A stretch of DNA of 64,000 bases, taken from NCBI GenBank assembly GCA_027490225.1, contig JAIXYK010000057.1:13015-77014 (forward strand), written 5' to 3'. Positions within the stretch are counted from its first letter, which is position 1, and every line of letters begins with the position of its first letter. Positions 1 to 19,267 of this stretch are shown piece by piece. The stretch is from Bacteroidota bacterium. Lineage in GTDB: Bacteria; Bacteroidota; Bacteroidia; M30B66. Position numbers and translations under genes: made by a program. The notes beneath the pieces are model-generated. The model saw nothing but the letters and a program-made list of their open reading frames with translations. It did not search any database and had not been told where the DNA came from.

Positions 1-1164
1 AATACTGTTGTTCAAGAAACAATGCAAGGAATTGTAAATGTTAAAGCATTTGCAAATGAATCTGTAGAAGTAAATCGATACCAAAAATCTATTAAAGAAA
101 TAGCTGCGTTATCAATGAAGTCAGCATTTTCAAGAGGCCTTTTTGCATCTTTTATAATTCTTGCTCTATTTGGTGCAATTGTGGGCATAGTTTGGTATGC
201 AACGCAATTGATGCTTGAAAATAAAATCACTTTTGGAGAAGTTATTTCATTTGTAATTTATACTTCATTTATTGGTGCTTCAATTGGTGGCATTGCAGAA
301 TTATACGCCCAAATACAAAAAGCAATTGGCGCAACCGAAAGAATATTTGAAATCCTTGACCAAACGCCAGAAAAGATTGATTTGAAATTCGACAAACAAG
401 CAGCTATTCGTTTCCATGGAAATGTAATATTCGAAAACGTAGAATTTTCTTATCCTGCAAGAAAAGAAGTAATGGTTTTAAAAGGATTAAATTTTGAAGC
501 TAAATCTGGCGAAAGCATCGCCATTGTTGGTTCTAGCGGGGCAGGTAAATCTACTATAACTCAGTTATTATTGAGATTTTACGAACCCGATGCAGGTAAA
601 ATATTGATTGACAATAAAGACGCCTTATCTTATAGTTTAACACAATTACGCGATCAAATGGCAATTGTTCCGCAGGATGTTATGTTGTTTGGAGGAACGA
701 TAAGAGAAAATATCCTTTATGGCAATCCAAATGCAAGCATGGAAGAAGTAATAGAAGCTGCAAAAAACGCAAATGCAGATTCATTTATTTCCTCATTTCC
801 AGATAAATACGAAACAGTTGTAGGTGAACGCGGAATTACACTCAGCGGAGGACAAAGACAAAGAATTGCAATTGCGAGAGCAGTTTTAAAAAATCCTTCC
901 ATATTGATTTTAGATGAAGCAACTTCTTCTTTAGATTCCGAATCGGAAAGGCTTGTGCAAGAAGCAATTGAAAAACTTATGATTGGAAGAACATCATTCA
1001 TAGTAGCCCATAGATTATCTACTATCAGAAATTCCAGTAAAATCATCGTTTTAGATAATGGAGTTATTTCAGAATCAGGAACTCATGAAGAACTCATAGT
1101 AAAAGAAAATGGTATTTATGCCAATCTTTCAAGATTACAATTCGCTCCTTCCGAGATTTATTAA
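1..1164 (+). CDS. ABC transporter permease/ATP-binding protein, C-terminal part (5' end lies outside the window)
   Basis: Frame is open from nt 1. Walker A GSSGAGKST, ABC signature LSGGQRQR, Walker B ILILDEATS and H-loop AHRLST are all canonical. A transmembrane segment precedes the NBD. Confidence 0.85.
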   Translation, partial: NTVVQETMQGIVNVKAFANESVEVNRYQKSIKEIAALSMKSAFSRGLFASFIILALFGAIVGIVWYATQLMLENKITFGEVISFVIYTSFIGASIGGIAELYAQIQKAIGATERIFEILDQTPEKIDLKFDKQAAIRFHGNVIFENVEFSYPARKEVMVLKGLNFEAKSGESIAIVGSSGAGKSTITQLLLRFYEPDAGKILIDNKDALSYSLTQLRDQMAIVPQDVMLFGGTIRENILYGNPNASMEEVIEAAKNANADSFISSFPDKYETVVGERGITLSGGQRQRIAIARAVLKNPSILILDEATSSLDSESERLVQEAIEKLMIGRTSFIVAHRLSTIRNSSKIIVLDNGVISESGTHEELIVKENGIYANLSRLQFAPSEIY

Positions 1165-1253
1165 TTTGGTTTAAAAATTGCTAAGAGCGGCATTTTTTTG
1201 AATTTCACTTTAATTTATAACTTAAGTTTGCAACAGTATTTAAACATTTTATT

Positions 1254-3503
1254 TTGATACCCAATAGTAGTATAGCTCTCATTTTAAGTAAGTTATCAGA
1301 ATTATTTAAAATTGATTCTAATGATTTAAAAGTTAGGCGCTCGGTTGAGCAGATGGATATAAAGGAAAATGCATTTGAAGAATACCTTCAATCATTATCA
1401 GAAGCTTCTACAGCCGTTAATTTATCTTTTATTAAACAAGAGTTCACAAGCAGTGAATTTAGAACTGTATTAAAGAATCTTACTTTTCCTACAATATTGT
1501 TTGCAAAAAAAGAAACTGAAATAGTTCCAGTAATTTTTTATGAGGTAAAATCAAGTTTAAAAGCTTGGTATATAAAAGCAAATGATGTTATTGAAATTGA
1601 AAATTCAGAAATAGAAAGTTGGCTTCCATTATTATTGAGTTTTGAAGAATGCTGTGTGCTTCAAGGAGGGAAAAATATTACAATAAAAGAAGCAGAGAAT
1701 AGGTATTTATTTTCATTATGCCCTGTAATTTTGAACTCAATGTTTGGTGCTGAAATAGATGACCAAATGAGAGGAGAGGTTGAGCATTATACACCTTTAA
1801 AAAGATTCTGGAGATTTGTAAAAACTGAAAAATCGAATATTTTCTATATTTATGTTTATTCAATTGTTATTGGATTAATTAATTTATCTCTTCCACTCGG
1901 AATTCAAGCTATTATTGGTAGGATTTCGGGAGGTCTTTTGTTTGATGGTGTAGTAGTTTTAATAACATTTGTAATTATCGGAATTATTATTGCAGGAGGT
2001 TTACAAATAATGCAGATTTACTTGGTTGAGATTTTACAAAGAAGAATATTCACAAGAGCTGCTTTTGAGTTTGCATTTAGAATTCCACGCATAAAAACCG
2101 AAGCATTATTAAAATCGCATCCACCTGAATTAATGAATCGTTTTTTTGAAGTGATAACCTTACAAAAAGGATTTTCAAAAATACTTTTAGACCTTACAAC
2201 AGCAGCCCTGCAAATTATTTTTGGATTATTGTTGCTTTCATTTTATAACGTTTCTTTCGTTTTCTTCGGACTATTTCTTTTTGTAGTTTTAATAATAGTG
2301 TTTCGAGCGACTGGTCCAAAGGGATTACAAACCAGCATTAAAGAATCAAAGTACAAATACAATATGGTTGCTTGGTTTGAGGAATTAGCAAGAAATATAT
2401 ATACATTTAAATCTGCAGGTTATACCAACATGCCATTAGACAGAACAGATGATCTTGTAGACAACTATTTATCAGCCAGAAAAAAACACTTCTCTATTTT
2501 ACTGACTCAATTCATAAACATTACAATTTTTAAGTTATTGGTAACAGGAGGAACCTTAATAATTGGTTGTATATTGGTAGTAAATCGAGAGATTACACTC
2601 GGTCAGTTCGTAGCTTCAGAAATTGTAATTATCTTTATTTTAGGTGCTACTGAAAAAATAATCATGAATATGGATACTGTTTATGATGTGCTCACTGCCT
2701 TGGATAAAATAGGACATATTACAGATTTACCTTTAGACGCCCCATCTGGCATAAGAATCAACAATTTGCAAGACAATGATGGATTTGAGTTAGAGACAAA
2801 AAATCTTTCATACTCTTATCCAGAAAGAAAAGAAAAGATTCTGAATGGTATAAACTTCAAAATAAGAACAGGTGAAAAAGTTTGTATTACAGGATCTAAT
2901 GGTTCAGGAAAAAACACTTTTACACAAATAATTTCTGGATTATTGAATAATTTTGATGGCACAGCCACTGTGAATGGAATATCGTTAAGAAACATTCACT
3001 TAACTGATTTACATGACGCTGTTGCTATAAATACTGCTTCAGACGAGATTTTCGAAGGTACAATTGAAGAAAATATTCGTTTAGGTAAGCCAGGGATTTC
3101 CCAAATTCAAGTTGTAAGAGCTATTGAAAAAGCGGGTTTGGTTGATTTTGTAAATAAATTGAAAGATGGAATTTACACAAAACTACTTCCAACTGGAAAA
3201 GGTATTCCAGGGTCTGCAGTTAGGAAAATCATACTTGCAAGGTGCTTAATTAAACAGCCTAGGTTGCTCATTTTTAATGATTATTTCGATAAATTAGAAA
3301 AAGCAGAAAAGTCCACTATTATTCAATCCTTGTGCAATATTGAATCGCAAACAACTTTAATTGCTGTTTCAACCGATCCATACTTAATGAAGCAATGCGA
3401 CAGGGTTATCATTTTTGATGCAGGCAAAATAGTTGCCGAAGGATCTTATGAAACACTTTCAAAAGATAGTAAATTTAAAAGTTTAATTAATCCAAACGAA
3501 TAG
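1254..3503 (+). CDS. ABC transporter-family protein with N-terminal extra (C39-like?) domain, six-TM domain and degenerate NBD
   Basis: 749-aa ORF with a TTG start at 1254; the first in-frame ATG is at 1353. Walker A is the variant GSNGSGKNT. The Q-loop Q is absent. The signature is replaced by IPGSAVRK. Walker B reads LLIFND with no catalytic E. No H-loop His. Confidence 0.75.
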   Translation: MIPNSSIALILSKLSELFKIDSNDLKVRRSVEQMDIKENAFEEYLQSLSEASTAVNLSFIKQEFTSSEFRTVLKNLTFPTILFAKKETEIVPVIFYEVKSSLKAWYIKANDVIEIENSEIESWLPLLLSFEECCVLQGGKNITIKEAENRYLFSLCPVILNSMFGAEIDDQMRGEVEHYTPLKRFWRFVKTEKSNIFYIYVYSIVIGLINLSLPLGIQAIIGRISGGLLFDGVVVLITFVIIGIIIAGGLQIMQIYLVEILQRRIFTRAAFEFAFRIPRIKTEALLKSHPPELMNRFFEVITLQKGFSKILLDLTTAALQIIFGLLLLSFYNVSFVFFGLFLFVVLIIVFRATGPKGLQTSIKESKYKYNMVAWFEELARNIYTFKSAGYTNMPLDRTDDLVDNYLSARKKHFSILLTQFINITIFKLLVTGGTLIIGCILVVNREITLGQFVASEIVIIFILGATEKIIMNMDTVYDVLTALDKIGHITDLPLDAPSGIRINNLQDNDGFELETKNLSYSYPERKEKILNGINFKIRTGEKVCITGSNGSGKNTFTQIISGLLNNFDGTATVNGISLRNIHLTDLHDAVAINTASDEIFEGTIEENIRLGKPGISQIQVVRAIEKAGLVDFVNKLKDGIYTKLLPTGKGIPGSAVRKIILARCLIKQPRLLIFNDYFDKLEKAEKSTIIQSLCNIESQTTLIAVSTDPYLMKQCDRVIIFDAGKIVAEGSYETLSKDSKFKSLINPNE

Positions 3504-3505
3504 GA

Positions 3506-4864
3506 ATGTTGCAAATATCACCACATTCGGTAGAACAAGATTTGAAAAAACATAAGTTGTACGCAATTAAACTTGCAGGTACGCCAAGGTTTGGGAAAGT
3601 AGTTACATGGTGGCTCGGAGGTCTCATGTTACTGCTTGTAATTATCTTATTCGTACCCTGGCAACAAAATGTTGATGGAAATGGTCATTTGACAGCTTTG
3701 TCACCCCAAGAAAGACCGCAAAACATACAATCTCCAATTGCTGGTAGAATAGATAAATGGGCCGTAGCAGAAGGTCAATTTGTGAAAAAAGGTGATACCA
3801 TTATGGTTCTTACCGAGATCAAAGAAAAATTTTTAGATCCCGAACTTTTACCAAGACTTCAGCAGCAAGTTGGCGCCAAACAAGGCGTGATAAAATCCAC
3901 CTTCGACAAAGCTGAGTCTTTAAGTAATCAAATAGGAGCTTTAAATTCAGGCTTAAAATTAAAATTACAACAAGCAACAAACAAGGTGTATCAAGGGAGA
4001 TTGAAAGTTAAATCAGATTCAATTGATTTGGTTGCAGAAACAATTAATTTTTCAATAGCTGACACACAGCTAACTTTAGGAAGAAATCTTTACAACAAAG
4101 GCTTGATTTCTCAGGTAGAGTTTCAAAGACGACAAGAAAAATTTCAGAATTCAACAGCAAAGCTTATTTCACAAGAAAATAAGTTGCTTGAAGCTAAAAA
4201 CAGCCTTTTAAATGCTCAAATAGAATTGAATTCGATAAGAGCCGATTATATGGAAAAAGTATCAAAAGCTGAATCTGACCGAAATTCTACTTTAGCCTAT
4301 GTTGCTGAAGCAGAAGGCGATTTGGCCAAGCTTGAAAATGAATATTCGAGCATGTTGGTTCGGAATACTTTTTATACAATTCGAGCACCTCAAGATGGTT
4401 ACGTTGTAAAAGCAGTTAGAGTTGGTATTGGTGAAAATATAAAAGAAGGAGAATCTGTCGTTACAATTATGCCTGCCAATCCTAAAGTTGCAGCAGAAAT
4501 TTATGTACGAGCAATGGATATTCCTTTGTTAAAAAAAGGACAGAAAGTAAGAATTCAATTTGATGGTTGGCCTGCTATTGTATTTTCAGGATGGCCAAAT
4601 GTAAGTGTTGGTACTTTTGGTGGCATCATACAAGTAGTTGATTTTGTTGAAAGTGATAATGGAAAATTCAGAGTATTAATTACTCCTGATCCTTCAGAAG
4701 ATCCTTGGCCAACACAAGTAAGAATGGGAAGCGGAGCAATTGCTTGGGCTATGCTCGATAATGTTCCAATTTGGTTTGAATTGTGGAGACAATTAAATGG
4801 CTTTCCGCCAAATTTAGACAAAGAATCAAAATCATCAAATAAAGAATTCGGAGCCAAGAAATGA
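3506..4864 (+). CDS. HlyD-family membrane fusion (secretion) protein
   Basis: Single N-terminal TM segment, long coiled-coil region, C-terminal beta-domain. Starts 3 nt after the ABC stop. Its end overlaps the next gene by ATGA. Confidence 0.8.
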   Translation: MLQISPHSVEQDLKKHKLYAIKLAGTPRFGKVVTWWLGGLMLLLVIILFVPWQQNVDGNGHLTALSPQERPQNIQSPIAGRIDKWAVAEGQFVKKGDTIMVLTEIKEKFLDPELLPRLQQQVGAKQGVIKSTFDKAESLSNQIGALNSGLKLKLQQATNKVYQGRLKVKSDSIDLVAETINFSIADTQLTLGRNLYNKGLISQVEFQRRQEKFQNSTAKLISQENKLLEAKNSLLNAQIELNSIRADYMEKVSKAESDRNSTLAYVAEAEGDLAKLENEYSSMLVRNTFYTIRAPQDGYVVKAVRVGIGENIKEGESVVTIMPANPKVAAEIYVRAMDIPLLKKGQKVRIQFDGWPAIVFSGWPNVSVGTFGGIIQVVDFVESDNGKFRVLITPDPSEDPWPTQVRMGSGAIAWAMLDNVPIWFELWRQLNGFPPNLDKESKSSNKEFGAKK

Positions 4865-6279
4865 GAAATAAAAGTTTTGTTATTTTTTTGTTTTTGTTTT
4901 CAAAAGTTGCTTTATCTCAACCACTTGATACAGTTAAAGTTGGTTCTGTTTCTATAAAGGATGTTTTTGAATATGTAAATGCATTTCATCCAATTATTAA
5001 ACAAGCTAAATTGCTGCCTCAGCAAGCCAGGTTTGAGATACGTGAAGCAAGAGGTTTTTTCGACCCTAAGTTTGCTGGAGATTTTGCCGAGAAAAAGTAC
5101 GACGATAAATTCTACTACAATAACTTAAATGCAATGCTGAAAGTTCCAGCTTGGATTGGAGATTTTAAAGGAGGATTGGAAAGAAACCGCGGCGTTTTTG
5201 TTAATGGAGAAAATTCAACTCCTGATGCAGGATTAATTTATGCAGGCTACTCTTTGCCTCTTGGCGCAGGTTTGTTTATTGATGAACGAAGAAATGCGTT
5301 AAGACAAGCGCAACAATTATCTAAAATAGCTGAAGCTGAGCAAGTTAAAATAATCAATAAGACACTGCTCAATGTTTCTAATGATTATTGGGAATGGTAT
5401 TTTTCTTGGAGACAATTAAATTTTATTAGTAATGCGGATTCTTTAGCAAAACAAAGATTTCGTTTTGTAAAAGACGTCGCAAGTCTTGGTAATTCTTCTA
5501 TGCTTGATACTTTGGAAGCTTATGGAAACATGCTTCAAAGAAATATTCAATTAGAACAGTCAAAATTAGAATTGAAAAACGCACGTTTACGATTGTCTGT
5601 TCATTTATGGGATTCTATTGCAAGACCTTTAGAATTGAGCAATGCTGCTATTCCATTTTTTATTAATCCTTTGGAATATTCTTTCTCTATTGGATTGTTA
5701 GATAGTTTGAAAAGTTTTTCATTGGTAAATCATCCAGATTTGTTAAAAATTGAAGGGAAATTAACACAACTCATATTTGAAAAACGTTTTAGAAATGAAA
5801 TGCTAAAACCTACAGTAAATCTGGATTATAATTTTTTAACTGCAGGAACAATACCAAATGTTGCTCAAAATATATTTCTATCTAATAATTATAAATTTGG
5901 GCTTTCGGTAGGTATGCCGCTGTTTCTTCGAAAAGAAAGAGGTAAATTGCAGGTAGTGAAAACAAAAATATCATTGCAAGAACTAGAAATGATAGATACC
6001 CGCCGTTCTGTAGGTGTTGAAGTAAATACAAGGTATAATGAATTGAAAAACCTAGAAGTTCAATTGAAAAGGCAAAATGAGGTGGTAATAGCGCTTCAAA
6101 CTTTGTTATCTGGGGAAATAGTAAAATTTCAAAATGGTGAAAGTTCCCTTTTTGTAGTAAACATGAGAGAAACAAATTTGATAAATGCAGGTGTTAAGCT
6201 TGCAGAATTTGAATCTAAATTTGCAAAATCTATTGCTTATTTATTTTGGGCATCAGGAATTAAAAACTGGACTTACTAA
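4861..6279 (+). CDS. TolC-like outer membrane efflux protein
   Basis: Signal peptide, about 470 aa, internally duplicated helical/beta architecture. Position after ABC-HlyD. ATGA overlap with HlyD. Confidence 0.65.
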   Translation: MRNKSFVIFLFLFSKVALSQPLDTVKVGSVSIKDVFEYVNAFHPIIKQAKLLPQQARFEIREARGFFDPKFAGDFAEKKYDDKFYYNNLNAMLKVPAWIGDFKGGLERNRGVFVNGENSTPDAGLIYAGYSLPLGAGLFIDERRNALRQAQQLSKIAEAEQVKIINKTLLNVSNDYWEWYFSWRQLNFISNADSLAKQRFRFVKDVASLGNSSMLDTLEAYGNMLQRNIQLEQSKLELKNARLRLSVHLWDSIARPLELSNAAIPFFINPLEYSFSIGLLDSLKSFSLVNHPDLLKIEGKLTQLIFEKRFRNEMLKPTVNLDYNFLTAGTIPNVAQNIFLSNNYKFGLSVGMPLFLRKERGKLQVVKTKISLQELEMIDTRRSVGVEVNTRYNELKNLEVQLKRQNEVVIALQTLLSGEIVKFQNGESSLFVVNMRETNLINAGVKLAEFESKFAKSIAYLFWASGIKNWTY

Positions 6280-6281
6280 TC

Positions 6282-6728
6282 ATGGCAGACTGGAGAATTA
6301 TTCAACCCTCAAACAGTGCAGAATGGGAAGCCTATTTTCAATTAAGGTTTGAGGTTTTAAGAAAGCCTTGGAATGAACCAATTGGCTCAGAAAAAAGTGA
6401 GGATGATGCAACATCTTTACATGCTTTAATTTTAGAAAATACAGGTAAAGCTATTGCCGTCGCAAGAATTCATCAATCAATTAAAAACCAACTTCAAGTC
6501 AGATTTATGGCTGTTAGACCTGAATTTCAAAAAAAAGGAATAGGGGGGGGCATGCTTAAATTCGTTGAAAAGATTGGTGTAAAACAATATCCCGAAACAA
6601 TAGAAATCATTTTGCATGCCCGCGAAAATGCAATAGAATTTTATAAATCAAATGGTTATAATATTGTAGAAGAGTCTTATGTTTTGTTTGGTGAAATTCA
6701 GCACTATCTTATGAAAAAGAAAGTTTGA
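6282..6728 (+). CDS. GNAT family N-acetyltransferase
   Basis: Acetyl-CoA binding motif RFMAVRPEFQKKGIGGGML. 148 aa. Starts 3 nt after the TolC stop. Confidence 0.7.
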   Translation: MADWRIIQPSNSAEWEAYFQLRFEVLRKPWNEPIGSEKSEDDATSLHALILENTGKAIAVARIHQSIKNQLQVRFMAVRPEFQKKGIGGGMLKFVEKIGVKQYPETIEIILHARENAIEFYKSNGYNIVEESYVLFGEIQHYLMKKKV

Positions 6729-6804
6729 TGCATTTAAAAATTCGCTACATTTAAACCATTCTAATTTTAACCATCAAAGTCAACTATAAATTAAAATCCA
6801 AAAA

Positions 6805-7242
6805 ATGAAATCAATTATTTTATCATTAGCAATGTTTGCATTTACTGCATCAACTTTTGCTCAAACAAATGGTGTGGCAGCTCCTCAAACAAATGCGCCT
6901 GCAAAACAAAAAACTCTTTCACCAGAAGACAGAGCAATTAGAGTTTTAAGAATGATGACAAGTCGTGTAGGATTAAAAGATAACCAAAGTGCTGAAGTAA
7001 AAGCGATTTTGATTGAAAGAGAAAATGCGAAAGCAGAAGCTAAAAAACTTACTGAAAAAGGAGCTAAAAAAGCTAAAATGCAAGAAGCTCAAGCATCAGC
7101 TGAAACTAAACTGCAGAAAGTTTTAACACCAGAACAGTGGACTGCTTGGGTGAAATTTAAAGAAGAACAAAAAGCAAAAAAAGCAGGTAATCAAGATGGT
7201 TCAAAATCTAATGAGCCCCAAAAAGAAGAAGATTTTTATTAA
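6805..7242 (+). CDS. hypothetical secreted Lys/Glu-rich protein (possible periplasmic LTXXQ/Spy-like)
   Basis: Signal peptide. Low-complexity K/E/A-rich helical sequence with motif LTPEQW. Confidence 0.45.
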   Translation: MKSIILSLAMFAFTASTFAQTNGVAAPQTNAPAKQKTLSPEDRAIRVLRMMTSRVGLKDNQSAEVKAILIERENAKAEAKKLTEKGAKKAKMQEAQASAETKLQKVLTPEQWTAWVKFKEEQKAKKAGNQDGSKSNEPQKEEDFY

Positions 7243-7382
7243 TCTTTTTTGGTATGAATTTAGTTGAGTAAAGTAAATAAATACCTTATATAATAAATTT
7301 ATTACCAATTATTTTGTTTTTTTTCAGATTTCTAAAAAGGAGTATACAATTGAATTTCTCTGCTAATAGCGGTAGAAGTATA

Positions 7383-9284
7383 ATGAATTGTATGCTCCTT
7401 TTTTTATTTTTTATTATCAGTCATCCTTCAAAATCACAAACACTCACTAAATTCTATTTAGAAAAGGAAACACCTGATGGATTAGTCTTTACATATGAAG
7501 GCTTAAAGAATGTAACAGATGAAATAATAATTCCAGCCAATTATGATTTTATATGGAATTTCAGAAATGATTCATTAACACTTGCCAGAAAAAGAATCTG
7601 GAATCCTATTGAAAAAACAACGGAATTAAGCTTTCAAATAATTAGTAAAAGTGGATTTCTATACTTTGAATTTCCGTATTATTTAATTCCAGAACCTAAT
7701 AATGAAGGATTGTTTAGATGTTTTAATACCAAAACAAATAAATGGGGATTTGTAGATGGTTTTGGTAATAATATTATTAAATATAAATACGTAGAGGCGC
7801 TTGATTTTCAAGAAGGTCTTGCTGTAGTAAAAGATGAAATAAGTTTGCTTTATGGTTATATTAACAAAAAAGGGAACTTTATCATAAAACCAGCTTATTC
7901 AGAAGCTTTTTCCTTCTCAGAAGGAAAAGCAATTGTAAAAAACAGTGCATCTGCAGATACTTATTCTTTTTTGAATAAAAATGGAAGTCAAGTTCCCATA
8001 AAAGAATCATACAAAAGAGTATATAATTTAGAAAATGGATTTGCAATTGTTGAAAAATCAAATGCAGATACCATATTGTATGGATTCATAGATAGCACAG
8101 GTAAAGAGATTCTATCTCCTAAATTTCAATTTATTGATAATTTCGAAAATGGAACTGCCGTTTTTTTGCAAAACAATGAAGCTGGAATGTTAAATTCTAA
8201 AGGAGAAATTATAATTCCAGCGCGATATGACGAATTATATAGATTTGATCAACAACATTATTTGTTTCAAAAGAATGGTCTTAAAGGCTTAATTAATTTA
8301 GATGGCAAAACTATTGTTCCTGCTAAATATTCATTAATTGATTATTTTAACGAAGGTTTAAGCGCAGTTCTTAAGTTTGATAAATGGGGCTTTGTTGACG
8401 CAGCCGGTAATGAAGTTATTTCTTGCAAATACGCCGAAGTTAAAAACAGTTTTGTTAATGGAGTAGTTGAAGTAAGAACCCAAGACAAGTGGTTAATTGA
8501 AAGCGCAAAAGACACAATTGTATTACCTCCATATGATGAGGTACTACCTTTTTATGGAAAAGCAGCTGCCTTTAGAATTGGTAATTTATGGGGTTTTTTA
8601 AATGACCATGGAGAAGAAAGTATTGAACCTAAATTTGTAGAATTAGTTTTCAATAAAGGAGGAGACATTTTTGGAAGAATACCTTTAGATGATGGACTTT
8701 CACATTGGGTGCTAATTGGTAATAATGGAGAGTTCTTAACAACTAATGTTTACAATGAGATTGTGCGATTTACCGAAGGATTTGCTGCTGTTAAAAATGA
8801 AAAAGGCTGGGGATTTATTGATGTAAATGGGTTGGAGATTGTTTCACCGAAATATGATGCAGTAAGAAATTTTTCAAATGGAAGAGCAGCTGTTATGAAA
8901 AACGATTTATGGGGATTCATAAATACATCCGGTCATGAAGTTATCCCAATTTACAATGGAAATCCTTCTTTTGAAGACGAAGAAGTTGCCCCAAACGACA
9001 CGCTATTTCATATTAGAGAATCTTATCCTTTATATGGAATGATTGTTCTTGGCGACTTCTTTGAAAATTGTGCTTGTATTCAAGATGAATTTGCTTCAGA
9101 TACCCAAAATGGGAATTTATGCATCAATAAGATTGGCAAACTACAATACAATAATGATTGCAAGCCATTTACCAAAATTGCCGACTATTTTGACCCAAAA
9201 TTAGAGATAAATACGAATTTGCGAATTGTTAGAATTCCTGGCAAATGGATGAAAATCGACAAATCGGGAAAATCTGTTGAATAA
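7383..9284 (+). CDS. KWG (WG) repeat-containing protein
   Basis: At least 10 copies of the ~35-aa K/EWGF(V/I)D..G motif. Start chosen at the ATG giving a signal-peptide-like N-terminus (MNCMLLFLFFIIS); the ORF is open from 7314. Confidence 0.65.
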   Translation: MNCMLLFLFFIISHPSKSQTLTKFYLEKETPDGLVFTYEGLKNVTDEIIIPANYDFIWNFRNDSLTLARKRIWNPIEKTTELSFQIISKSGFLYFEFPYYLIPEPNNEGLFRCFNTKTNKWGFVDGFGNNIIKYKYVEALDFQEGLAVVKDEISLLYGYINKKGNFIIKPAYSEAFSFSEGKAIVKNSASADTYSFLNKNGSQVPIKESYKRVYNLENGFAIVEKSNADTILYGFIDSTGKEILSPKFQFIDNFENGTAVFLQNNEAGMLNSKGEIIIPARYDELYRFDQQHYLFQKNGLKGLINLDGKTIVPAKYSLIDYFNEGLSAVLKFDKWGFVDAAGNEVISCKYAEVKNSFVNGVVEVRTQDKWLIESAKDTIVLPPYDEVLPFYGKAAAFRIGNLWGFLNDHGEESIEPKFVELVFNKGGDIFGRIPLDDGLSHWVLIGNNGEFLTTNVYNEIVRFTEGFAAVKNEKGWGFIDVNGLEIVSPKYDAVRNFSNGRAAVMKNDLWGFINTSGHEVIPIYNGNPSFEDEEVAPNDTLFHIRESYPLYGMIVLGDFFENCACIQDEFASDTQNGNLCINKIGKLQYNNDCKPFTKIADYFDPKLEINTNLRIVRIPGKWMKIDKSGKSVE

Positions 9285-12972: not shown

Positions 12973-14052
12973 ATGAAAAAACACCTACTATTAGCATTTG
13001 CTGCATTTGCAACCTTTGAAGCATTTAGCCAGAATGGCTTAGAAAATATAATTGTTGAGAAATACTATATTTCTAATGATAACGACGCAACTGTAAATGG
13101 TACCGGCGGAGTTTTGCCAGTTGGTTCTGTAACATATAGAATATATGTAGACATGCAACCAAATTACATACTTCAAGCAATTTATGGTGTACCAGGCCAT
13201 GAAATGAGAATAGCAACAACATCATTGTTTTTTAATAATGAAGATAGAGGAGCAACAACTCCAACATATACAAAGAATCAAGCAAAGAATAATACTGTTA
13301 TGCTAGATTCTTGGTTGTCAGTTGGGGCAGCATGTGCAGGTAACTTTGGAGTTTTAAAAACAGAGGATGACGGAGCAGCCACAAACGTAAATTCTGATGG
13401 AGTTTTGCAAAACACTGATCCAAATGCTGGAATTCCATTAACACAACAAGATGGTTTATTATTAGGTACACCTCAGCCTGTAACTACAGTAGGATTAGAT
13501 AATATTGTTACTGTATTTGATAATCAAAATGATGGTACAAACGGACCTGTGTTTTCTACTTCAGATGGCGCATGGTCAGCACTTAATGGTGCAACAGGTC
13601 CAACACCATCTAATACTGTGCTAATTGCACAAATTACAACAAATGGAATTTTATCTTTTGAGCTGAACATTCAGATTAGAAGTGAAGGAGGCCAGGTAGA
13701 GAATTATGTTGCAAGAAACCCTGTAAATCAGGAGATTTTATTCCCAGGGTTAAATTTTGCCTCTGATTCACCAACAAAGAACTTATTTATAGAGGCAGAA
13801 CAAGCATTGTTCAGTTTGTTTCCAAATCCTGCTAATGAAACTTTATTTGTAAAGTTGAATTCAACTAAAAATGAAATTGGCCGTTATTCAATTTATGATA
13901 TAACAGGTAAATTGGTAACGTTAAAAACTTTAGGTGTTGTAAACGAAGGACAAATTGAAACAATTGACATCTCTCAACTTTCAAAAGGTCAGTACTTTAT
14001 GGATGTCGTTTTAAACGGAAAAAGATATACCGAAAAGTTTATAAAGAATTAA
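12973..14052 (+). CDS. T9SS type-A cargo protein, member of a local 3-gene paralog family (shared ~230-aa N-domain)
   Basis: Signal peptide. N-domain (EKYYISNDNDA...FFNNEDRGATTPTYTKNQA...DSWLSVG) shared with 17173..18510 and 21532..24978. CTD FPNPANETLFVKL...GQYFMDV. Confidence 0.65.
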   Translation: MKKHLLLAFAAFATFEAFSQNGLENIIVEKYYISNDNDATVNGTGGVLPVGSVTYRIYVDMQPNYILQAIYGVPGHEMRIATTSLFFNNEDRGATTPTYTKNQAKNNTVMLDSWLSVGAACAGNFGVLKTEDDGAATNVNSDGVLQNTDPNAGIPLTQQDGLLLGTPQPVTTVGLDNIVTVFDNQNDGTNGPVFSTSDGAWSALNGATGPTPSNTVLIAQITTNGILSFELNIQIRSEGGQVENYVARNPVNQEILFPGLNFASDSPTKNLFIEAEQALFSLFPNPANETLFVKLNSTKNEIGRYSIYDITGKLVTLKTLGVVNEGQIETIDISQLSKGQYFMDVVLNGKRYTEKFIKN

Positions 14053-14073: not shown

Positions 14074-14101
14074 AGACAGGTGTTAAAAACCTGTCTTTTT
14101 A
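14074..14101 (+). terminator. rho-independent terminator
   Basis: 7-bp stem AGACAGG / CCTGTCT, 9-nt loop, then TTTTT. Lies immediately after the 14052 stop. Confidence 0.6.
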
Positions 14102-14115
14102 ATTTATACCTACTT

Positions 14116-17100
14116 ATGAATAGAATTTTACTTTGTATATTAATTATTTGCTTGTATGCTCTAAACAGTTTTTCACAAGGCACTGTAAGAGGTAAAATTA
14201 CAGATGAAAACGGAGAAACTATTATTGGGGCAACAATTGTCTTGAAAGCAAACAAAAGTATTGGAACTATTACTGATTTTGATGGCAATTACTCATTAGC
14301 CATAAAGGATTCTACACTTCAAACTATTATAATTTCCTTTGTTAGTTATAAACCAATTGAGGAAAATGTTAAATTAAAGAAAGGTGAAGTTTTAATCAGA
14401 AATTTTTCTCTAAAACCAAATCAAAACGAAATTAAAGAAGTTGAAATAACTGCAACTGCCATTAAGAATAAGGAATATTTCATGGAGAATATCAAAAAGA
14501 AGTCAGCAGCTTCAATTGATTATATTTCTTCAGAGACAATGAAAAAAACAGGTGATAATAATGTTACAGCTGCAGTTGCCAGGGTAAGTGGTGTTTCTAC
14601 AAATGGAAGCTTTATTACAGTAAGGGGAATAGGTGATAGGTATTTAAAAACCAATATCAATGGAATGAGGATTCCAACATTAGACCCATTCACAAACAAT
14701 ATTAAGCTCGATTTATTTCCAGCAAGTTTGGTAGACAATATTATTATCACAAAAACTGCCTCTCCTGATTTACCAGGCGATTGGGCTGGTGCATATATTT
14801 CTATTGAAACCAAAGATTATCCTGATAAGTTAACTGTTAGTGTAGAATCTCAATTTGGGTATAATGCGCAAACAACTGGAAAAGACATGCTTACTTCAGA
14901 AAGAAGTCAAACTGATTGGTTGGGTTTTGATAATGGATTAAGAAATGTTGACCATAATAGTTTTGTGCAAGTAAATGTCAATCCTACTCAATATCAAGAA
15001 TTTGCAGCATTAGGTTTGGGTAATTATTTACAATCTTTAGGTGTAAATGAGAACTCAGCTTGGAATGATACTTACTATAAGCTTTCTTTGGTAGAACTTG
15101 GTTTATTAGATAAAGGTAGGTTTTATGATGATGCAGCAGTTGCAGCAGCTAAAGCAACTTTTAATGCTGGTGATTATAAAGGAAATGCATTTGCTACAAT
15201 AAATGAAGCTGCTTCAGCATCAAGTCAAAAGTTTGCAAATAACTGGGATACAAAAACCAGAAAAGGCCCTATGAATTTTAGCCAGAGCTTTAGTATTGGA
15301 AATCAGGTGATGCTTTTCGGAAAGCCCTTGGGTTTTTTAACGGGATTTAGATATGGAAGTTCTTTTCAGAATGACCCCAACTCAACGGTAGAAAGGGCAG
15401 GAACCGACAACAATGGAAATGTATTTGTTCCTACATTCATTAATCAGCATGTGAGCAGAGAAATGTACGGTTGGAGTGGATTAGTTAATTTAGCATACAA
15501 ATTTGCTAAAAATCACAGTGTGTCACTTTTGTTTATGCCCAATTTTAATGGAGCAAATAATGTGAGGAATGATGCTGAGTTTGATAATTCTTTCGCTTAT
15601 CAATACACTTACTCTAAGACACAGTTTTATGAAGAAAGAAGGCAAATGATTTATCAGCTCAAAACAGAGCATTATATTCCCAAACCAAAAATTAAAGTAG
15701 AATCTAATGTTTCATACACCAGAGGAAAAAGTAGCGCACCAGATTTTAAAAATTATAATTATTTCTTATCCAACGATAACCAATATATAATTGATAGAAC
15801 AGGCTCATTTACAAGCAGATTTTACAGGTATTTAACTGAAAATTTATTCGATTCTAAAGTTTCAGCAGAAATGCCATTAGGAAACAAACCTTTGCTTGTA
15901 AGAAAAGTAAAGATTGGAGGAGGATTTCAAAGAAACGACAGAGCTAACGACCAATATAATTATATAGCTAAATGGACTATTCCAGGTGCTTATGTAATTC
16001 AAAATGGAGATATATCGCCGTTTTTTGCTTTGAGCGATTTTGCATTAAACAGTAACAATCAAATTATTGCATATTACGAAAGAGATGAAAATCCGGCTAA
16101 TAGAAATATTGGTTACAGCCAGATTGTAAGTGGTTTTGCAATGACTGACTACAGCATTGATTACAGATGGAGGGTTGCTGGAGGATTAAGAATTGAGTCA
16201 GCAAGAATTTTTACAGATGTTTTGGCATATGATTCATTGGGTTATGCAGCCAATGATGGAAGAAGATTTTTTTCTGCTGGAATTCTACCATTACTGCCTA
16301 ATCCAGGAAACTTAGAAAATTTTAATCTCTTGCCGAGTGCCAATGTTATTTTTAAAATAAAACCTGAAGATGATGCGCCTATGAATTTGCGCTTTAACTT
16401 TAGTAAAACAGTTGCAAGACCAAGTATCAGAGAGCTTTCTGAGATAATTGTTCCTGATTTTGAATTACGTGCCAATGTATTTGGAAATTCAGATTTGAAA
16501 ACAGTTGAAATCATGAACTACGATTTAAGATGGGAAAATTATTTTAAATCAGGTGATAATCTTTCTTTCAGTTTGTTTTACAAAGATTTTAAAAATCATA
16601 TTGAACTAACAAACTCAACCTTAGGCTTTACATGGCAGAATATTGATAAATCTGTTGCTTATGGATTGGAATTAGAAGGTAAAAAGCGAATTATTAAAAA
16701 CTTAGAATTCAGAGGAAATATAACTATTACCAATTCTAGTTCTACATTCATACCAACCACTTTAATTTTAGATGGAGGAGTGAAGACTTATGTTCCTTTA
16801 CCAGAAGTTACTAGGTCTATGTTTGGTCAAGCGCCTTATGTTTTAAACGGTATGTTGAATTATAATTCTGATACCTTAGGTTTAACTGCCACTTTAAGTT
16901 ACAATAGACAAGGCAGAAGATTAGTAATAGCAAATGGATTTACCATTCCTGATGTGTATGAAGTACCTAGAAATTTAATTGATTTAAAAATTAGTAAAAA
17001 TCTAGGAAAGCATTTCATTGTATCTCTAACAATAAGAGATATATTGAATTCCCCAATTGTAAGAACTTATGATTTCAAAGAAGGTGATCCAATTGATTTT

Positions 17101-17154
17101 GATAGGTTTAGGTATGGAACAAATTATCAAATTGGAATTCAATATAAATTGTAA
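14116..17154 (+). CDS. TonB-dependent outer membrane receptor with N-terminal carboxypeptidase-regulatory-like domain
   Basis: Signal peptide and CarbopepD_reg-like start (GTVRGKITDENGETIIGATI). Plug domain (ITVRGIGDRYL), long beta-barrel, C-terminal aromatic (YKL). Start set after the upstream terminator; the ORF is open from 14080. Confidence 0.75.
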   Translation: MNRILLCILIICLYALNSFSQGTVRGKITDENGETIIGATIVLKANKSIGTITDFDGNYSLAIKDSTLQTIIISFVSYKPIEENVKLKKGEVLIRNFSLKPNQNEIKEVEITATAIKNKEYFMENIKKKSAASIDYISSETMKKTGDNNVTAAVARVSGVSTNGSFITVRGIGDRYLKTNINGMRIPTLDPFTNNIKLDLFPASLVDNIIITKTASPDLPGDWAGAYISIETKDYPDKLTVSVESQFGYNAQTTGKDMLTSERSQTDWLGFDNGLRNVDHNSFVQVNVNPTQYQEFAALGLGNYLQSLGVNENSAWNDTYYKLSLVELGLLDKGRFYDDAAVAAAKATFNAGDYKGNAFATINEAASASSQKFANNWDTKTRKGPMNFSQSFSIGNQVMLFGKPLGFLTGFRYGSSFQNDPNSTVERAGTDNNGNVFVPTFINQHVSREMYGWSGLVNLAYKFAKNHSVSLLFMPNFNGANNVRNDAEFDNSFAYQYTYSKTQFYEERRQMIYQLKTEHYIPKPKIKVESNVSYTRGKSSAPDFKNYNYFLSNDNQYIIDRTGSFTSRFYRYLTENLFDSKVSAEMPLGNKPLLVRKVKIGGGFQRNDRANDQYNYIAKWTIPGAYVIQNGDISPFFALSDFALNSNNQIIAYYERDENPANRNIGYSQIVSGFAMTDYSIDYRWRVAGGLRIESARIFTDVLAYDSLGYAANDGRRFFSAGILPLLPNPGNLENFNLLPSANVIFKIKPEDDAPMNLRFNFSKTVARPSIRELSEIIVPDFELRANVFGNSDLKTVEIMNYDLRWENYFKSGDNLSFSLFYKDFKNHIELTNSTLGFTWQNIDKSVAYGLELEGKKRIIKNLEFRGNITITNSSSTFIPTTLILDGGVKTYVPLPEVTRSMFGQAPYVLNGMLNYNSDTLGLTATLSYNRQGRRLVIANGFTIPDVYEVPRNLIDLKISKNLGKHFIVSLTIRDILNSPIVRTYDFKEGDPIDFDRFRYGTNYQIGIQYKL

Positions 17155-17172: not shown

Positions 17173-18510
17173 ATGACAAATGTTAGAAAACAATTCCTAG
17201 CCATTTTATTTTGCCTTTTTTTATCTCCTGTTTTTTCACAAATTGAAAATGTAGTTGTAGAAACATATTACATTTCAGATAGCAATGATGCTACTGATAC
17301 AACTGGCGGTGGAATTGAAATCGGAACTAAAACTTACCGAGTTTATTTAGATTTAGTAGCAGGGACAAGGGTGAAAAAAATATATGGAGATATCAATCAT
17401 CCCTTAATTATTAGTAGTACGCAGAACTTTTTCAACAATAAAGTTGATGGTCAAACTTTTGGTAAAGAATTTACTAAAAACAGATTAGGCGAAAATACTG
17501 TTGCCTTGGATACTTGGATAACATTAGGCCAAACAACTCGAAACGCTGCTGTTACTTACTTCGGTGTATTAAAAGTAAATGATGAAAATTCATTTATAGG
17601 CGGTTCAAATAATGATGGAGGAAGCGAAGCCATCACAAATGGATTATTAACAAATAATATTTCTGAAATGGGAATTCCATTGACAGAAAAAGATGGTATG
17701 GATACCATTTTAAATCCCCCAAATTCTTGGGCAGATTATGGTTTTGCAGATGTTGTTTCTGGAGAAGATTCAACTATTTTTGGATCATTAGTTTCTGGAA
17801 ATAGATTTGAAAGCAGAAATGCGGGATTGCTCAATTCAGGAGTTATTGGAGTTGATTCTTTGTTAAATCATGTTTTGGTTGCACAATTATCTACAAAAGG
17901 TGAAATTGCATTTGAATTAAACATTGAAGTCGAAATTCCATCATTAATTGGTTTTCAAACAGTGAAATATGTTGCCAACGATTCACTTATTGGGGAAGGA
18001 GAAGTATTAAGTCCTTTTTTAAAATACCCTCAACAATGTGGATGTCAAGATGCAAACTATTTAGAATATAGCCCGATTTATGCTTGCAACAATCCTGATT
18101 CATGCAGGAATTTAATAGTTTTCGGTTGCATGGATCCAATGGCTTGCAATTTTAGCAGTACTGCTAATTTTAATATTCAAGATATCTGCTGCTATATTGG
18201 TGATTGCAATGATTTAGATATTTCAATTGTTTGTCCATCTTTAGGAGAAAATGAAATTTCAGAAATCGAGAAATTACGCGTTTTTCCAAATCCTGCTACT
18301 GAAACAATAAATGTAAAGCATAGCTTCACTCAGAATAATGAATTTAAGATTAAGATTTTAGATCACGTAGGAAGAGTTGTTTCAGTATATAATGTTCTTA
18401 ATCCTGAAAATTCAACTGCAATTAATATCTCCAATTTTGCACCGGGTATTTATTTTATTGAGTTGACTTCTAAAGAAGGTATTTCAGCTGAAAAATTTAT
18501 TAAGCAATAA
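17173..18510 (+). CDS. T9SS type-A cargo protein, paralog-family member
   Basis: Same N-domain as 12973 and 21532 (VETYYISDSNDA...FFNNKVDG...DTWITLG). Cys-rich middle. CTD VFPNPATETINVK...GIYFIELTSKEG. Confidence 0.65.
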   Translation: MTNVRKQFLAILFCLFLSPVFSQIENVVVETYYISDSNDATDTTGGGIEIGTKTYRVYLDLVAGTRVKKIYGDINHPLIISSTQNFFNNKVDGQTFGKEFTKNRLGENTVALDTWITLGQTTRNAAVTYFGVLKVNDENSFIGGSNNDGGSEAITNGLLTNNISEMGIPLTEKDGMDTILNPPNSWADYGFADVVSGEDSTIFGSLVSGNRFESRNAGLLNSGVIGVDSLLNHVLVAQLSTKGEIAFELNIEVEIPSLIGFQTVKYVANDSLIGEGEVLSPFLKYPQQCGCQDANYLEYSPIYACNNPDSCRNLIVFGCMDPMACNFSSTANFNIQDICCYIGDCNDLDISIVCPSLGENEISEIEKLRVFPNPATETINVKHSFTQNNEFKIKILDHVGRVVSVYNVLNPENSTAINISNFAPGIYFIELTSKEGISAEKFIKQ

Positions 18511-18526
18511 TTCAATTTTTATTAAA

Positions 18527-19267
18527 ATGAAAAATAGTTTTAAAAAATATAAAAATATTTGTGTTTTAACTCTTTTAATAGGAACAAGCTTTTTGTATTC
18601 TTGCGAAGAAGATACTCCTGTAACTCCTGTTCCAGAGACAGGAACTGTTACTGATGTAAGCGGAAACGTTTATAAAACCGTGAAAATTGGAGAAAAGTGG
18701 TGGATGGCTGAAAATTTGAAAACTACAAAATTTAAAAATGGCAATGACATTCAAACAATAGCAGATGCAGATGATTGGATGCTTGGAGCTGCAGCATATT
18801 GCCAGTTTGAAAATAACCAACTTGCCCCAGGTCTTCTTTATAATTGGGCAGCAGTAAAAAGTGAAAACGGTTTAGCTCCAGACGGCTGGCATATAGCAAC
18901 AGAAGAAGATTGGAAAAATTTGGAGAGACATTTAAAAATGTCAGAAGTTGAAATTAATAAAATAAACTGGAGAGAAGATAATAAGGTTGGAGATAAATTG
19001 AAAATAAAAGGTCCAACCAGTTGGACTAGATTCGAAGATGTTTGGGGTAATAATGAAAGCGGGTTTGAAGCTCTTTCTGGTGGATGTAGATTAAATAATG
19101 GAAACTGGGGAAATCCAGGCATCGGAGCAGCAGGGTTTTGGTGGTCTTCTACTGAAAATGATTACAATACTGCTTGGATGCGACAATTAGATTATAAGAA
19201 ATCTGGTGTTTTTAGATTTTATATTCAAAAAAATTATGGGCTAAGTGTTCGTTGTGTAAAAGATTAA
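18527..19267 (+). CDS. lipoprotein with Fibrobacter succinogenes major paralogous (Fib_succ_major) domain
   Basis: Lipobox LYSC. Motifs GEKWWMAENL, LYNWAAV, DGWHIATEEDW, GFEALSGGCR, GFWWSST. Confidence 0.7.
   Translation: MKNSFKKYKNICVLTLLIGTSFLYSCEEDTPVTPVPETGTVTDVSGNVYKTVKIGEKWWMAENLKTTKFKNGNDIQTIADADDWMLGAAAYCQFENNQLAPGLLYNWAAVKSENGLAPDGWHIATEEDWKNLERHLKMSEVEINKINWREDNKVGDKLKIKGPTSWTRFEDVWGNNESGFEALSGGCRLNNGNWGNPGIGAAGFWWSSTENDYNTAWMRQLDYKKSGVFRFYIQKNYGLSVRCVKD

Follow-up and report, generated by a model that had tools for sequence, protein, structure and literature searches.

The described systems that come closest to the locus analysed here are the following: (i) HlyB-HlyD-TolC and the RTX-type type I secretion systems (T1SS), together with the LssB-type transporters; (ii) the PCAT/AMS exporters (PCAT1, ComA, LahT), whose type-I exporter membrane domain is fused to a nucleotide-binding domain (NBD); (iii) the asymmetric exporters TM287/288, TmrAB and TAP1/2; and (iv) TetR-regulated tripartite pumps, of which E. 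coli CecR-YbhGFSR and MacAB-TolC can be taken as analogies. HlyB-HlyD-TolC has three components, and its ABC protein is built, in this order, from a C39-like domain without catalytic Cys, a membrane domain and an NBD with a fully canonical ATPase. In TM287/288, TmrAB and TAP1/2, the deviations are split over two adjacent paralogous subunits, so that one site is canonical, and the degenerate site presents a Walker B Glu to Asp change and an altered H-loop. The CecR-YbhGFSR and MacAB-TolC pumps possess active ATPases, and their inner-membrane component is of the ABC-2 or MacB type.

An ORF check of the window (i.e., the whole 64,000-nucleotide stretch of Bacteroidota DNA that was analysed) confirmed the five ORFs of the locus on the same strand, with the coordinates given in an earlier note on this DNA (Table 1). 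The gene identities proposed at that time (ABC, ABC, HlyD, TolC-like and GNAT) were corroborated by a Pfam HMM search: G1 matched ABC_membrane and ABC_tran (121.5 bits for ABC_tran); G2, ABC_membrane and a weak ABC_tran (59.4 bits); G3, HlyD_3, HlyD_D23 and Biotin_lipoyl_2; G4, OEP (101.7 bits); and G5, GNAT. The start of G2 is a TTG codon, supported by the conservation of residues 1-33 in homologues. In G3, about 32 N-terminal residues are cytoplasmic and a single TM helix is present; the protein scores 90 bits against TIGR01843, under the cut-off of 208.65. G4 carries a signal peptide. The tight packing attributed to all five genes holds for G2 to G5, with gaps of 2 nt between G2 and G3 and between G4 and G5, and a 4-nt overlap (ATGA) between G3 and G4, but not for G1 and G2, which are 89 nt apart.

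Table 1. Position of the genes, spacer, domains and motifs of the locus in the window.
Feature	Position	Strand	Remark
G1, canonical MsbA-like ABC half-transporter, 3' 387 codons only	1..1164	+	Flanking gene, outside the exporter
G1-G2 spacer, 89 nt	1165..1253	+	
G2, 749-aa ABC protein (C39-like domain, type-I exporter membrane domain, non-canonical NBD)	1254..3503	+	Core of the triad
G2 N-terminal C39-like domain, aa 1-165, non-catalytic	1254..1748	+	
G2 membrane domain, aa 181-495	1794..2738	+	Most conserved part of G2
G2 non-canonical NBD, aa 510-749	2781..3503	+	
G2 A-loop, SYSYPE	2808-2825	+	
G2 Walker A, GSNGSGKNT	2892-2918	+	
G2 signature position, IPGSAVRK	3204-3227	+	
G2 Walker B, LLIFND	3264-3281	+	
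G2 D-loop position, DKLEK	3288-3302	+	D-loop lost
G2 H-loop, AVSTDP	3363-3380	+	
G3, HlyD-family membrane-fusion protein	3506..4864	+	Pfam; 3' of G2 in 75/80 loci
G4, TolC-like outer-membrane factor	4861..6279	+	Pfam OEP; 3' of G3 in 71/80 loci
G5, GNAT acetyltransferase	6282..6728	+	Pfam; backbone neighbour

The locus was compared with species-level genome loci, each a stretch of 22 kb, among which gene order was scored in 80 and motifs in 79. The genes for G2, G3 and G4 lie side by side in about 70-75 of the 80 loci, mostly from Cytophagales, and the G2-homologous frames are complete wherever the contig permits. According to this comparison, the conserved unit is G2-G3-G4 only, and not the five genes that had been regarded as a single unit. 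A TetR-family gene lies immediately upstream of the triad in 54 loci; in the window's own clade, no TetR gene was found in that place. Apart from the triad and TetR, genes in the neighbourhood from -7 to +9 kb of G2 recur in 12 loci at most. Around the loci (at least 70) no conserved small ORF was detected, the only recurring ones being shadow frames within the genes for TetR and TolC. Furthermore, among the loci with upstream sequence, those outside the window's clade have neither a G1-like nor any other second ABC gene adjacent upstream of G2.

The reading of the locus as a type-I-secretion-like tripartite module (ABC protein, HlyD-type adaptor and TolC-like channel) is upheld, with an ABC component that is devoid of canonical catalytic residues. 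From sequence, we infer that G2-G3-G4 forms a self-contained tripartite envelope-spanning exporter of type-I-secretion/PCAT architecture. As in RTX-type T1SS, the adjoining HlyD-type adaptor and the TolC-type channel are both conserved beside G2. In contrast to HlyB-HlyD-TolC, the triad has no linked gene for an RTX, C-terminal-signal or other cargo (in the neighbourhoods of the loci or in L085, a contig of the same species), TetR is usual upstream of it and the ATPase is not canonical. The PCAT/AMS exporters differ in that no gene for a double-glycine leader peptide was found near the triad (at least 70 loci, and the upstream sequence of L085), and in that the G2 NBD is non-canonical and G2 is joined by an adaptor and a TolC-like channel. 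The usual operon of the G2 family (TetR, ABC-type inner-membrane component, HlyD-family adaptor and TolC-type channel) resembles CecR-YbhGFSR and MacAB-TolC, but the ABC fold class is different, G2 being a type-I exporter half-transporter that bears a C39-like domain, and the window's clade does not share the TetR gene. In any case, the TetR gene upstream of the module in most lineages agrees equally well with inducible efflux of a small or lipidic compound and with export of a protein.

G1 and G5 are backbone neighbours, not exporter components, and the cassette sits between them. This follows from the fact that G1 keeps its GNAT, DUF4890 and WG-repeat neighbours when the triad is absent, while its distant orthologues are located elsewhere. 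In the related genomes L084 and L087, the triad is absent and the genes for GNAT, DUF4890 and WG repeats come directly 3' of G1, and two more distant G1 orthologues stand in unrelated contexts, beside rpmH and gidB. Within the window's clade, the triad, where present, lies directly 3' of G1 (window, L085, L086, L088, L001-L004 and L010). The GNAT gene is missing from about 70 Cytophagales triads; in this window, G5 is probably co-transcribed with the triad, since it begins 2 nt 3' of G4. The suggestion that the GNAT modifies the cargo or immunises against it found no support, given that the GNAT occurs without the triad and the triad without the GNAT in those approximately 70 loci. The same applies to the cargo gene that had been expected upstream of the window: L085, with 98.3% nucleotide identity to the window, contains only housekeeping-type genes upstream and no cargo gene.

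As for G1 itself, the earlier note was right that every catalytic motif is intact: the motifs are canonical (GSSGAGKST, VPQD, LSGGQ, ILILDE, SSLD and AHR), and the whole set, including LSGGQ and the D-loop, is kept in 109 of 109 proteins of its family. In L085, the full-length protein has 600 aa. A full-length orthologue (L001:8021-9853) scored 499.5 against a cut-off of 602 (TIGR02203) and 584.7 against 780.4 (TIGR02204), in consequence of which G1 can be called MsbA-like by sequence, below both MsbA cut-offs and without established membership.

G2 is the distinctive protein of the locus. Its extra N-terminal domain, previously suspected to be C39-like and non-catalytic, is indeed present (about 165 aa; predicted fold with a pLDDT of 85). 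No conserved catalytic Cys or His was found in it among homologues, and no sequence-level similarity to C39 was detected. The missing Cys is shared with HlyB; the lack of a conserved His and of C39 sequence similarity sets G2 apart from it, and the lack of both residues sets it apart from the PCAT/AMS exporters. Members of the family from Pontibacter are entirely devoid of the C39-like domain. In Foldseek searches, PCAT1 (E 1.7e-32) and HlyB were the best matches over the whole length of G2 (about 750 columns), and TM287/288 and TmrAB were matched too. At the sequence-profile level, positions 156-726 of G2 align with residues 147-714 of ComA (membrane domain and NBD). The top NCBIfam model is the LssB type (TIGR03375; 208.9 bits over residues 170-737), but this score is far under the cut-off of 693.1 bits and the NBD motifs are non-canonical; likewise, G2 obtains 154.6 bits against the HlyB family (TIGR01846), whose cut-off is 725.55. 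Several polar or acidic TM residues are invariant in the family: Q218, Q251, Q254, Q320, E456 (in TM6) and E467/K468. No description of such proteins was found in the literature, and G2 apparently represents a distinct, undescribed family of Bacteroidota.

The NBD is the part of G2 that departs from known exporters. On re-reading of the sequence, the motif strings reported earlier were reproduced letter for letter, and the Q-loop region reads VAINTASDEIF, without Gln. The same deviations are present in 118 database homologues and in the 79 loci scored for motifs, and the ORF is intact, which excludes a frameshift or sequencing error as the cause of the degeneracy. In the family, the Walker B motif mostly ends in N-D rather than D-E, the H-loop reads S-N-D rather than A-H-R, and both LSGGQ and the D-loop are missing; in fact, canonical DE, H-loop His and LSGGQ were found in none of the 79 loci. 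At the same time, D676 is invariant in the 118 homologues, Lys553 and D708 each occur in 117 of them, and the A-loop aromatics are retained at positions 520 (Y/F in 118 of 118) and 522 (Y/F in 117 of 118), with Y520 and Y522 in the window. In consequence, the claim that all G2 motifs are degenerate stands for the catalytic and dimer-interface elements, which are lost, but not for Walker A, which is only mildly changed and keeps its Gly-rich loop and Lys553, nor for the A-loop aromatics. Judged by its motifs, then, the G2 NBD is one with putative nucleotide-binding elements retained and catalytic and dimer-interface elements replaced. Mean pairwise identity in the G2 family is 43.6% for the NBD and 66.5% for the membrane domain; the G1 family, used as control, shows the opposite trend (73.7% and 69.6%, respectively).

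The best overall explanation, held with moderate confidence, is that G2-G4 are a cassette, flanked by G1 and G5 as mere neighbours, in which a G2 homodimer binds ATP and hydrolyses it poorly. G2 is most likely a homodimer because, throughout the family, the module comes without another ABC gene; it would then have two identical non-canonical sites. These sites are predicted to bind ATP and to hydrolyse it slowly, if at all, and ATP binding may gate the G2 membrane domains or cycle them slowly, with no fast turnover. When the Walker B Glu is changed to Asp, hydrolysis persists at a slow residual rate and nucleotide is bound tightly, according to a review (PMC7756269). The literature yielded no characterised precedent for a type-I exporter that is a homodimer and degenerate at both of its sites.

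A second explanation also takes G2 as a homodimer, but its NBD would be a structural or regulatory vestige, and transport would be powered by a source other than ATP, for instance the proton-motive force through membrane carboxylates, or would consist of gated passive release. The much better conservation of the membrane domain than of the NBD, the invariant polar and acidic residues inside TM helices and the family-wide loss of catalytic base, H-loop His, signature and D-loop are consistent with it. Furthermore, the SbmA/BacA-type proteins are an ABC-related exporter group that includes proton-driven members without an NBD. Nevertheless, we regard this explanation as unlikely: the Walker A Lys, the Gly-rich loop, the A-loop aromatics and the acidic residue at the position of the catalytic base are nearly invariant, which argues for continued nucleotide binding by the G2 family, and no member of the family is entirely without NBD.

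It is improbable that G2 needs an unlinked canonical ABC partner other than G1, either a half-transporter or a soluble ATPase. Such a partner would solve the energy problem, and in three loci (L055, L059 and L073) the opposite strand carries, about 2.5-3 kb upstream, a small match that resembles an ABC ATPase; but no such gene recurs as a conserved neighbour between -7 and +9 kb from G2, and the two subunits of a heterodimeric ABC exporter generally have neighbouring genes.

The earlier interpretation, namely that G1 and G2 form an asymmetric heterodimer with one functional ATP site which works with G3 and G4, the GNAT providing modification or immunity, is now very unlikely, as the two ABC proteins turned out to belong to unrelated systems. 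Their adjacency, with G1 directly 5' of G2 and both genes on one strand, is seen in the window and in every triad-bearing relative of its clade but is limited to that clade, the other loci, about 70, being without a G1-like neighbour; G1 orthologues persist without the triad, with the GNAT still adjoining. The pair is therefore not co-conserved, for G1 occurs without G2 and G2 without G1. The spacer measures 89 nt here and 90-390 nt in relatives, unlike the tight joints inside the triad. It contains no terminator hairpin (fold z-score of 0.2), so G1 and G2 may be co-transcribed; this, the adjacency and the absence from this clade of the TetR gene seen elsewhere speak for the heterodimer. A Bacteroidetes-type promoter-like match in the spacer, composed of TTTG (1197-1200) and TAAGTTTG (1223-1230), the latter lying 23 nt 5' of the TTG start, is weak: it is conserved only in L085 and L088, and the window as a whole shows no excess of such consensus-level matches over chance (9 against 5.8 expected). 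With regard to the sites themselves, G2 resembles the degenerate sites of TM287/288, TmrAB and TAP1/2 in the Walker B Glu to Asp change and the altered H-loop, but it carries all the deviations alone, has no conserved partner and adjoins a canonical G1 that keeps LSGGQ and D-loop throughout its family. The complementary degeneracy of a heterodimer, with Walker B and H-loop altered in one subunit and the signature in the other, was not observed, while in known asymmetric exporters the site deviations are split between both NBDs (PMC7756269, section 7). Moreover, a G1-centred site in such a heterodimer would be impaired too, because the signature and D-loop of G2 are degenerate.

Finally, that G2 is a T1SS remnant which is decaying and no longer functional, as the lost catalytic motifs and the faster-evolving NBD might suggest, is extremely improbable and effectively refuted by the conservation data, i.e., G2 frames found together with adaptor and channel genes in most loci, a membrane domain that remains so similar across orders, and the invariant or nearly invariant replacement residues D676 and D708.

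A broader and speculative possibility, to which we give a low but not negligible likelihood, is that the G2 family has abandoned ATP hydrolysis as power stroke: its homodimeric NBDs would serve only as nucleotide-binding gates or sensors and export would be driven otherwise, for instance, by the proton-motive force via invariant carboxylates of the membrane domain such as E456. If true, this would be a new way to energise a type-I-secretion-like machine with an adaptor-and-TolC conduit.

Five open reading frames, all on the + strand, occupy positions 1-6728 of the window. They are designated G1 to G5, and the cassette formed by G2 (degenerate ABC protein), G3 (HlyD-type adaptor) and G4 (TolC-like channel) is called the triad.

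Positions and descriptions of the features discussed, in window coordinates
Feature	Positions	Strand	Description
G1	1-1164	+	ABC half-transporter, C-terminal 387 aa (the window edge cuts the rest); Pfam ABC_membrane and ABC_tran, 121.5 bits
G2	1254-3503	+	749 aa; Pfam ABC_membrane and weak ABC_tran, 59.4 bits
LPTGKG stretch of G2	3186-3203		G2 aa 645-650
G3	3506-4864	+	adaptor of the HlyD family
G4	4861-6279	+	OEP/TolC-like, with signal peptide
G5	6282-6728	+	GNAT
G6	6805-7242		DUF4890-like small secreted protein
G7	7314-9284		656-aa WG_beta_rep protein, 276 bits, 8 repeats
Sorting-domain protein	12973-14052		type IX secretion C-terminal sorting domain
TonB-dependent receptor	14080-17154		between the two sorting-domain proteins
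Sorting-domain protein	17173-18510		type IX secretion C-terminal sorting domain
Fib_succ_major protein	18527-19267		next to the preceding protein
SprB-repeat protein	31119-38981		2620 aa; 19 SprB repeats, PKD domains, CHU_C type IX secretion signal

The earlier note described the five genes as one unit with gaps of 3 nt or ATGA overlaps. This description fits G2 to G5 (2 nt between G2 and G3, a 4-nt ATGA overlap between G3 and G4, and 2 nt between G4 and G5) but not G1 and G2, which are 89 nt apart. A start of G2 at ATG 1354, which would widen this gap to 189 nt, was rejected, and TTG 1254 is supported as the start, because residues 1-33 are conserved in homologues, align with their N-termini and form confidently predicted helices. 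A search by fold score found no terminator hairpin in the 89-nt spacer (z = 0.2) and, in consequence, transcription may read through from G1 into G2. The spacer does contain a promoter-like match, TTTG-N22-TAAGTTTG, which is kept in the two closest relatives only; since the window shows no enrichment of the composite Bacteroidetes promoter pattern (9 occurrences versus 5.8 expected), this match was not taken to prove separate transcription.

When one genome per species was scanned, more than 574 relatives of G2 were found, and the best 80 of these loci were taken for context analysis by tblastn of the window proteins and by clustering of all neighbouring open reading frames of at least 50 aa. 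These 80 loci are mostly from Cytophagales (Cyclobacteriaceae, Flammeovirgaceae, Roseivirgaceae, Fulvivirga, Catalinimonas, Ohtaekwangia/Chryseolinea, Pontibacter and Arcicella), and a few are unclassified Bacteroidota MAGs near the window. G2 is followed by a G3-like gene in 75 of them and by a G4-like gene in 71, and most of the loci lacking one of these genes end before its expected position. Immediately upstream of G2, on the same strand, 54 of the best 80 loci carry a 226-aa gene for a TetR-family regulator (PF00440); no other neighbour recurs in more than 12. Hence, the triad is a conserved three-gene module with PCAT/HlyB architecture, and the normal operon of the family comprises (i) a TetR regulator, present in most lineages; (ii) the ABC protein; (iii) the adaptor; and (iv) the channel, with no conserved partner ABC gene and no linked cargo gene. 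Three loci only (L055, L059 and L073, from other assemblies) show an NBD-only match, resembling a small ABC ATPase, at ~6.9-7.7 kb on the minus strand; it is 31-32% identical to the nucleotide-binding domain (NBD) of G1 and is found upstream of the TetR-ABC operon, in the opposite orientation and at a distance of 2.5-3 kb.

A conserved cargo gene was sought among the neighbours of G2 by clustering at both 50 aa or more and 18-90 aa, which gave only the TetR gene and shadow reading frames inside the TetR and TolC genes. The proposal that the cargo gene lies upstream of the window was not borne out either. Locus L085, with 98.3% identity to the window across 9,164 nt, provides 8.6 kb of further upstream sequence with, in this order, genes for an aminotransferase, a BamD-like YfiO, rpoZ, a coaBC-like protein, DUF4835, NYN/CSD, an RNA methyltransferase, TauE, an MFS_3 transporter and full-length G1 (600 aa); these 8.6 kb contain no RTX-like protein or precursor peptide.

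The motifs of G1 are fully canonical (GSSGAGKST, VPQD, LSGGQ, ILILDE, SSLD and AHR). Those of G2, which had been transcribed correctly in the earlier note, read SYSYPE (A-loop), GSNGSGKNT (Walker A), VAINTASDEIF (Q-loop region), IPGSAVRK (signature position), LLIFND (Walker B), DKLEK (D-loop position) and AVSTDP (H-loop). A frameshift or misreading was discarded as an explanation, as the reading frame is intact and the deviations recur in 118 database homologues (43-97% identity) and 79 translated genome loci. Within this survey, Walker B has the form hhhhN-D, with a few D-D, H-D and Q-D variants, and Asp at the position of the catalytic Glu is invariant in the 118 homologues; the H-loop has the form S-N/T-D-P (D708 in 117 of 118), and the signature position that of L/F-S/P-x-S-x-V-x-K. 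The H-loop His, LSGGQ at the signature position and the D-loop SALD are all absent from the 118 homologues and the 79 loci.

The nucleotide-binding elements, on the other hand, are still in place: G547 and G552 never vary, 117 of the 118 homologues keep the Walker A Lys, and Y or F occupies one A-loop aromatic position in all 118 and the other in 117. A Q-loop Gln, shifted by one alignment column, is also kept by most members of the family and has mostly been lost in the clade of the window. Thus, the claim that all motifs of G2 are degenerate holds for the catalytic machinery, to which "ATPase-dead" may reasonably be applied, but not for nucleotide binding; what the domain lacks is its catalytic base and switch His, together with its signature and D-loop.

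Immediately before the degenerate signature, the family conserves a [LVI][SP]GG[KR]G stretch (LPTGKG in the window), in which G648 is invariant and K/R649 is present in 112 of the 118 homologues. It lies six residues before the signature position and was considered as a displaced LSGGQ. This was rejected: the stretch aligns with the canonical 'GExG' loop, to which it is taken to be equivalent because its spacing from the Q-loop is 54 versus 55 residues (a hand count on two sequences), and only nine of the 118 homologues have LSGG there.

Conservation in the G2 family is unevenly distributed. Mean pairwise identity is 43.6% in the NBD, 66.5% in the membrane domain and 24% in the N-terminal domain, whereas in the canonical G1 family the NBD (73.7%) is ahead of the membrane domain (69.6%), as is usual. 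In the G2 membrane domain, many polar and charged residues, among them E456 in TM6, are invariant.

The N-terminal domain of G2 has no match in Pfam or NCBIfam at E = 1; its relationship to C39 was detected by fold search only. The full-length model (pLDDT 78) matches PCAT1 and HlyB across ~750 columns, and no Cys or His is conserved in any column of the N-terminal alignment, where only P79 and P92 are near-invariant. The predicted fold thus lends support to the suggestion that this domain is C39-like and non-catalytic. A profile of the domain matched only 133 cluster representatives among 1.84 billion, in all cases starting within the first 60 residues and in most at residues 1-3; the matched proteins have ~700-780 aa or are shorter, many of the latter being probably fragments. 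The domain is not indispensable, since four Pontibacter species have 579-aa versions of G2 without it (L060:9971-11710; also in L063, L064 and L074), with 'DD' instead of 'ND' in Walker B, still located between the TetR and HlyD/TolC genes. None of the curated NCBIfam models claims G2, the best being the LssB-type T1SS model (208.9 bits versus a cut-off of 693). Because it fails both the curated cut-offs and the catalytic-motif criteria, the module appears to be a T1SS/PCAT-like tripartite exporter in architecture, yet no member of the HlyB, LssB or PCAT families.

The earlier note had paired G1 with G2 in a heterodimeric exporter with one working site, and had assigned the GNAT to it as an accessory. 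Comparison of related genomes does not support either assignment. Among the 80 loci, genes resembling G1 upstream, and G5 and G6 downstream, are confined to the clade of the window (L001-L004 and L010; G2 53-63% identical), where the triad, when present, always directly follows G1. At full length, the G1 orthologue has ~600 aa and is a generic half-transporter of the MsbA/ABCB-like kind, scoring under the TIGR02204 and TIGR02203 cut-offs; orthologues at 67-68% identity (L081, L082/L083) lie beside rpmH and gidB, without G2, HlyD or TolC. In L084 and L087 (G1 77% and 69% identical), the G5, G6 and G7 orthologues come directly after G1, with no triad between them (GNAT 48-50% identical, WG-repeat protein 43-54%), and the triad is inserted precisely into this G1/GNAT junction in L085, L086, L088 and L001-L004 (L084:8001-13053 and L087:8001-12788 compared with window 1-9284). 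Accordingly, G1, GNAT, DUF4890 and WG-repeat genes are the backbone, within which some genomes carry the triad as a cassette and others lack it, and ~70 other genomes have the triad without G1 or GNAT. G6 and G7 are syntenic with G1 and GNAT across the clade. The cassette is distributed patchily with respect to G1 identity, which suggests that it was lost or gained more than once.

The motifs also argue against this heterodimer. No motif, LSGGQ and SSLD included, is lost in any of the 109 G1-family proteins, whether a triad follows or not. Asymmetric exporters that have been characterised carry an altered Walker B Glu and H-loop in one NBD and an altered signature in the other (PMC7756269), whereas here all deviations are in G2; as its signature and D-loop are degenerate, the G1-centred site of a hypothetical G1/G2 dimer would not make a clean design with one functional site. 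As a caution, gene order in a single clade gave a misleading picture, in which a canonical ABC gene and a GNAT passed for parts of the operon; it was the presence/absence comparison of related genomes that settled their membership.

Elsewhere in the window, the TonB-dependent receptor is flanked by sorting-domain proteins, not by a SusD-like partner. The SprB-repeat protein resembles a gliding-motility adhesin, and its region has a GC content of 0.39-0.42 versus ~0.32 in the remaining window. At least five window proteins bear type IX secretion sorting domains. Neither a tRNA gene nor an Rfam match at the gathering threshold is present in the 64-kb window; its host is an uncultured low-GC Bacteroidota lineage.

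What remains, judging by its sequence, is a widespread, uncharacterised ABC protein with a degenerate catalytic machinery, which belongs to a self-contained tripartite pump. In type I secretion systems and ABC-type tripartite pumps, ATP hydrolysis is understood to be the driving force. G2 would form a homodimer with two identical non-canonical sites, which would bind ATP and hydrolyse it very slowly. Such slow hydrolysis is suggested by the Glu-to-Asp change in P-glycoprotein, which leaves residual ATPase activity and tight nucleotide retention, and by the Asp-bearing degenerate sites of heterodimers, which hold ATP for many cycles (PMC7756269). Alternatively, the pump might be energised through an unlinked canonical ABC partner, or by a proton-motive or otherwise ATP-independent drive. 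In the homodimeric pump, a G3 hexamer and a G4 trimer would form the conduit, as in HlyBD-TolC, and the C39-like domain may serve for docking or regulation. Given the TetR gene and the lack of a linked cargo, inducible efflux of a small or lipidic molecule is about as plausible as protein secretion.

In the literature, searched in full text with limited coverage that gives no proof of novelty, no description of the G2 family was found, nor of a type-I exporter whose homodimer has two degenerate sites; neither is mentioned in the accessible portions of a major review of tripartite systems. To our knowledge, the role of non-catalytic NBDs has so far been studied only in asymmetric heterodimers, CFTR and SUR. 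Here, across hundreds of Bacteroidota species, the architecture is whole and every catalytic and NBD-dimer motif is replaced; in the apparent homodimer both sites would be degenerate, and the membrane domain is unusually strongly conserved. The family thus raises the questions of what powers the machine and what purpose its non-catalytic NBDs have. It would represent a natural "double-dead" exporter that is directly testable, with cultured hosts including Fulvivirga, Ohtaekwangia, Pontibacter and Arcicella.
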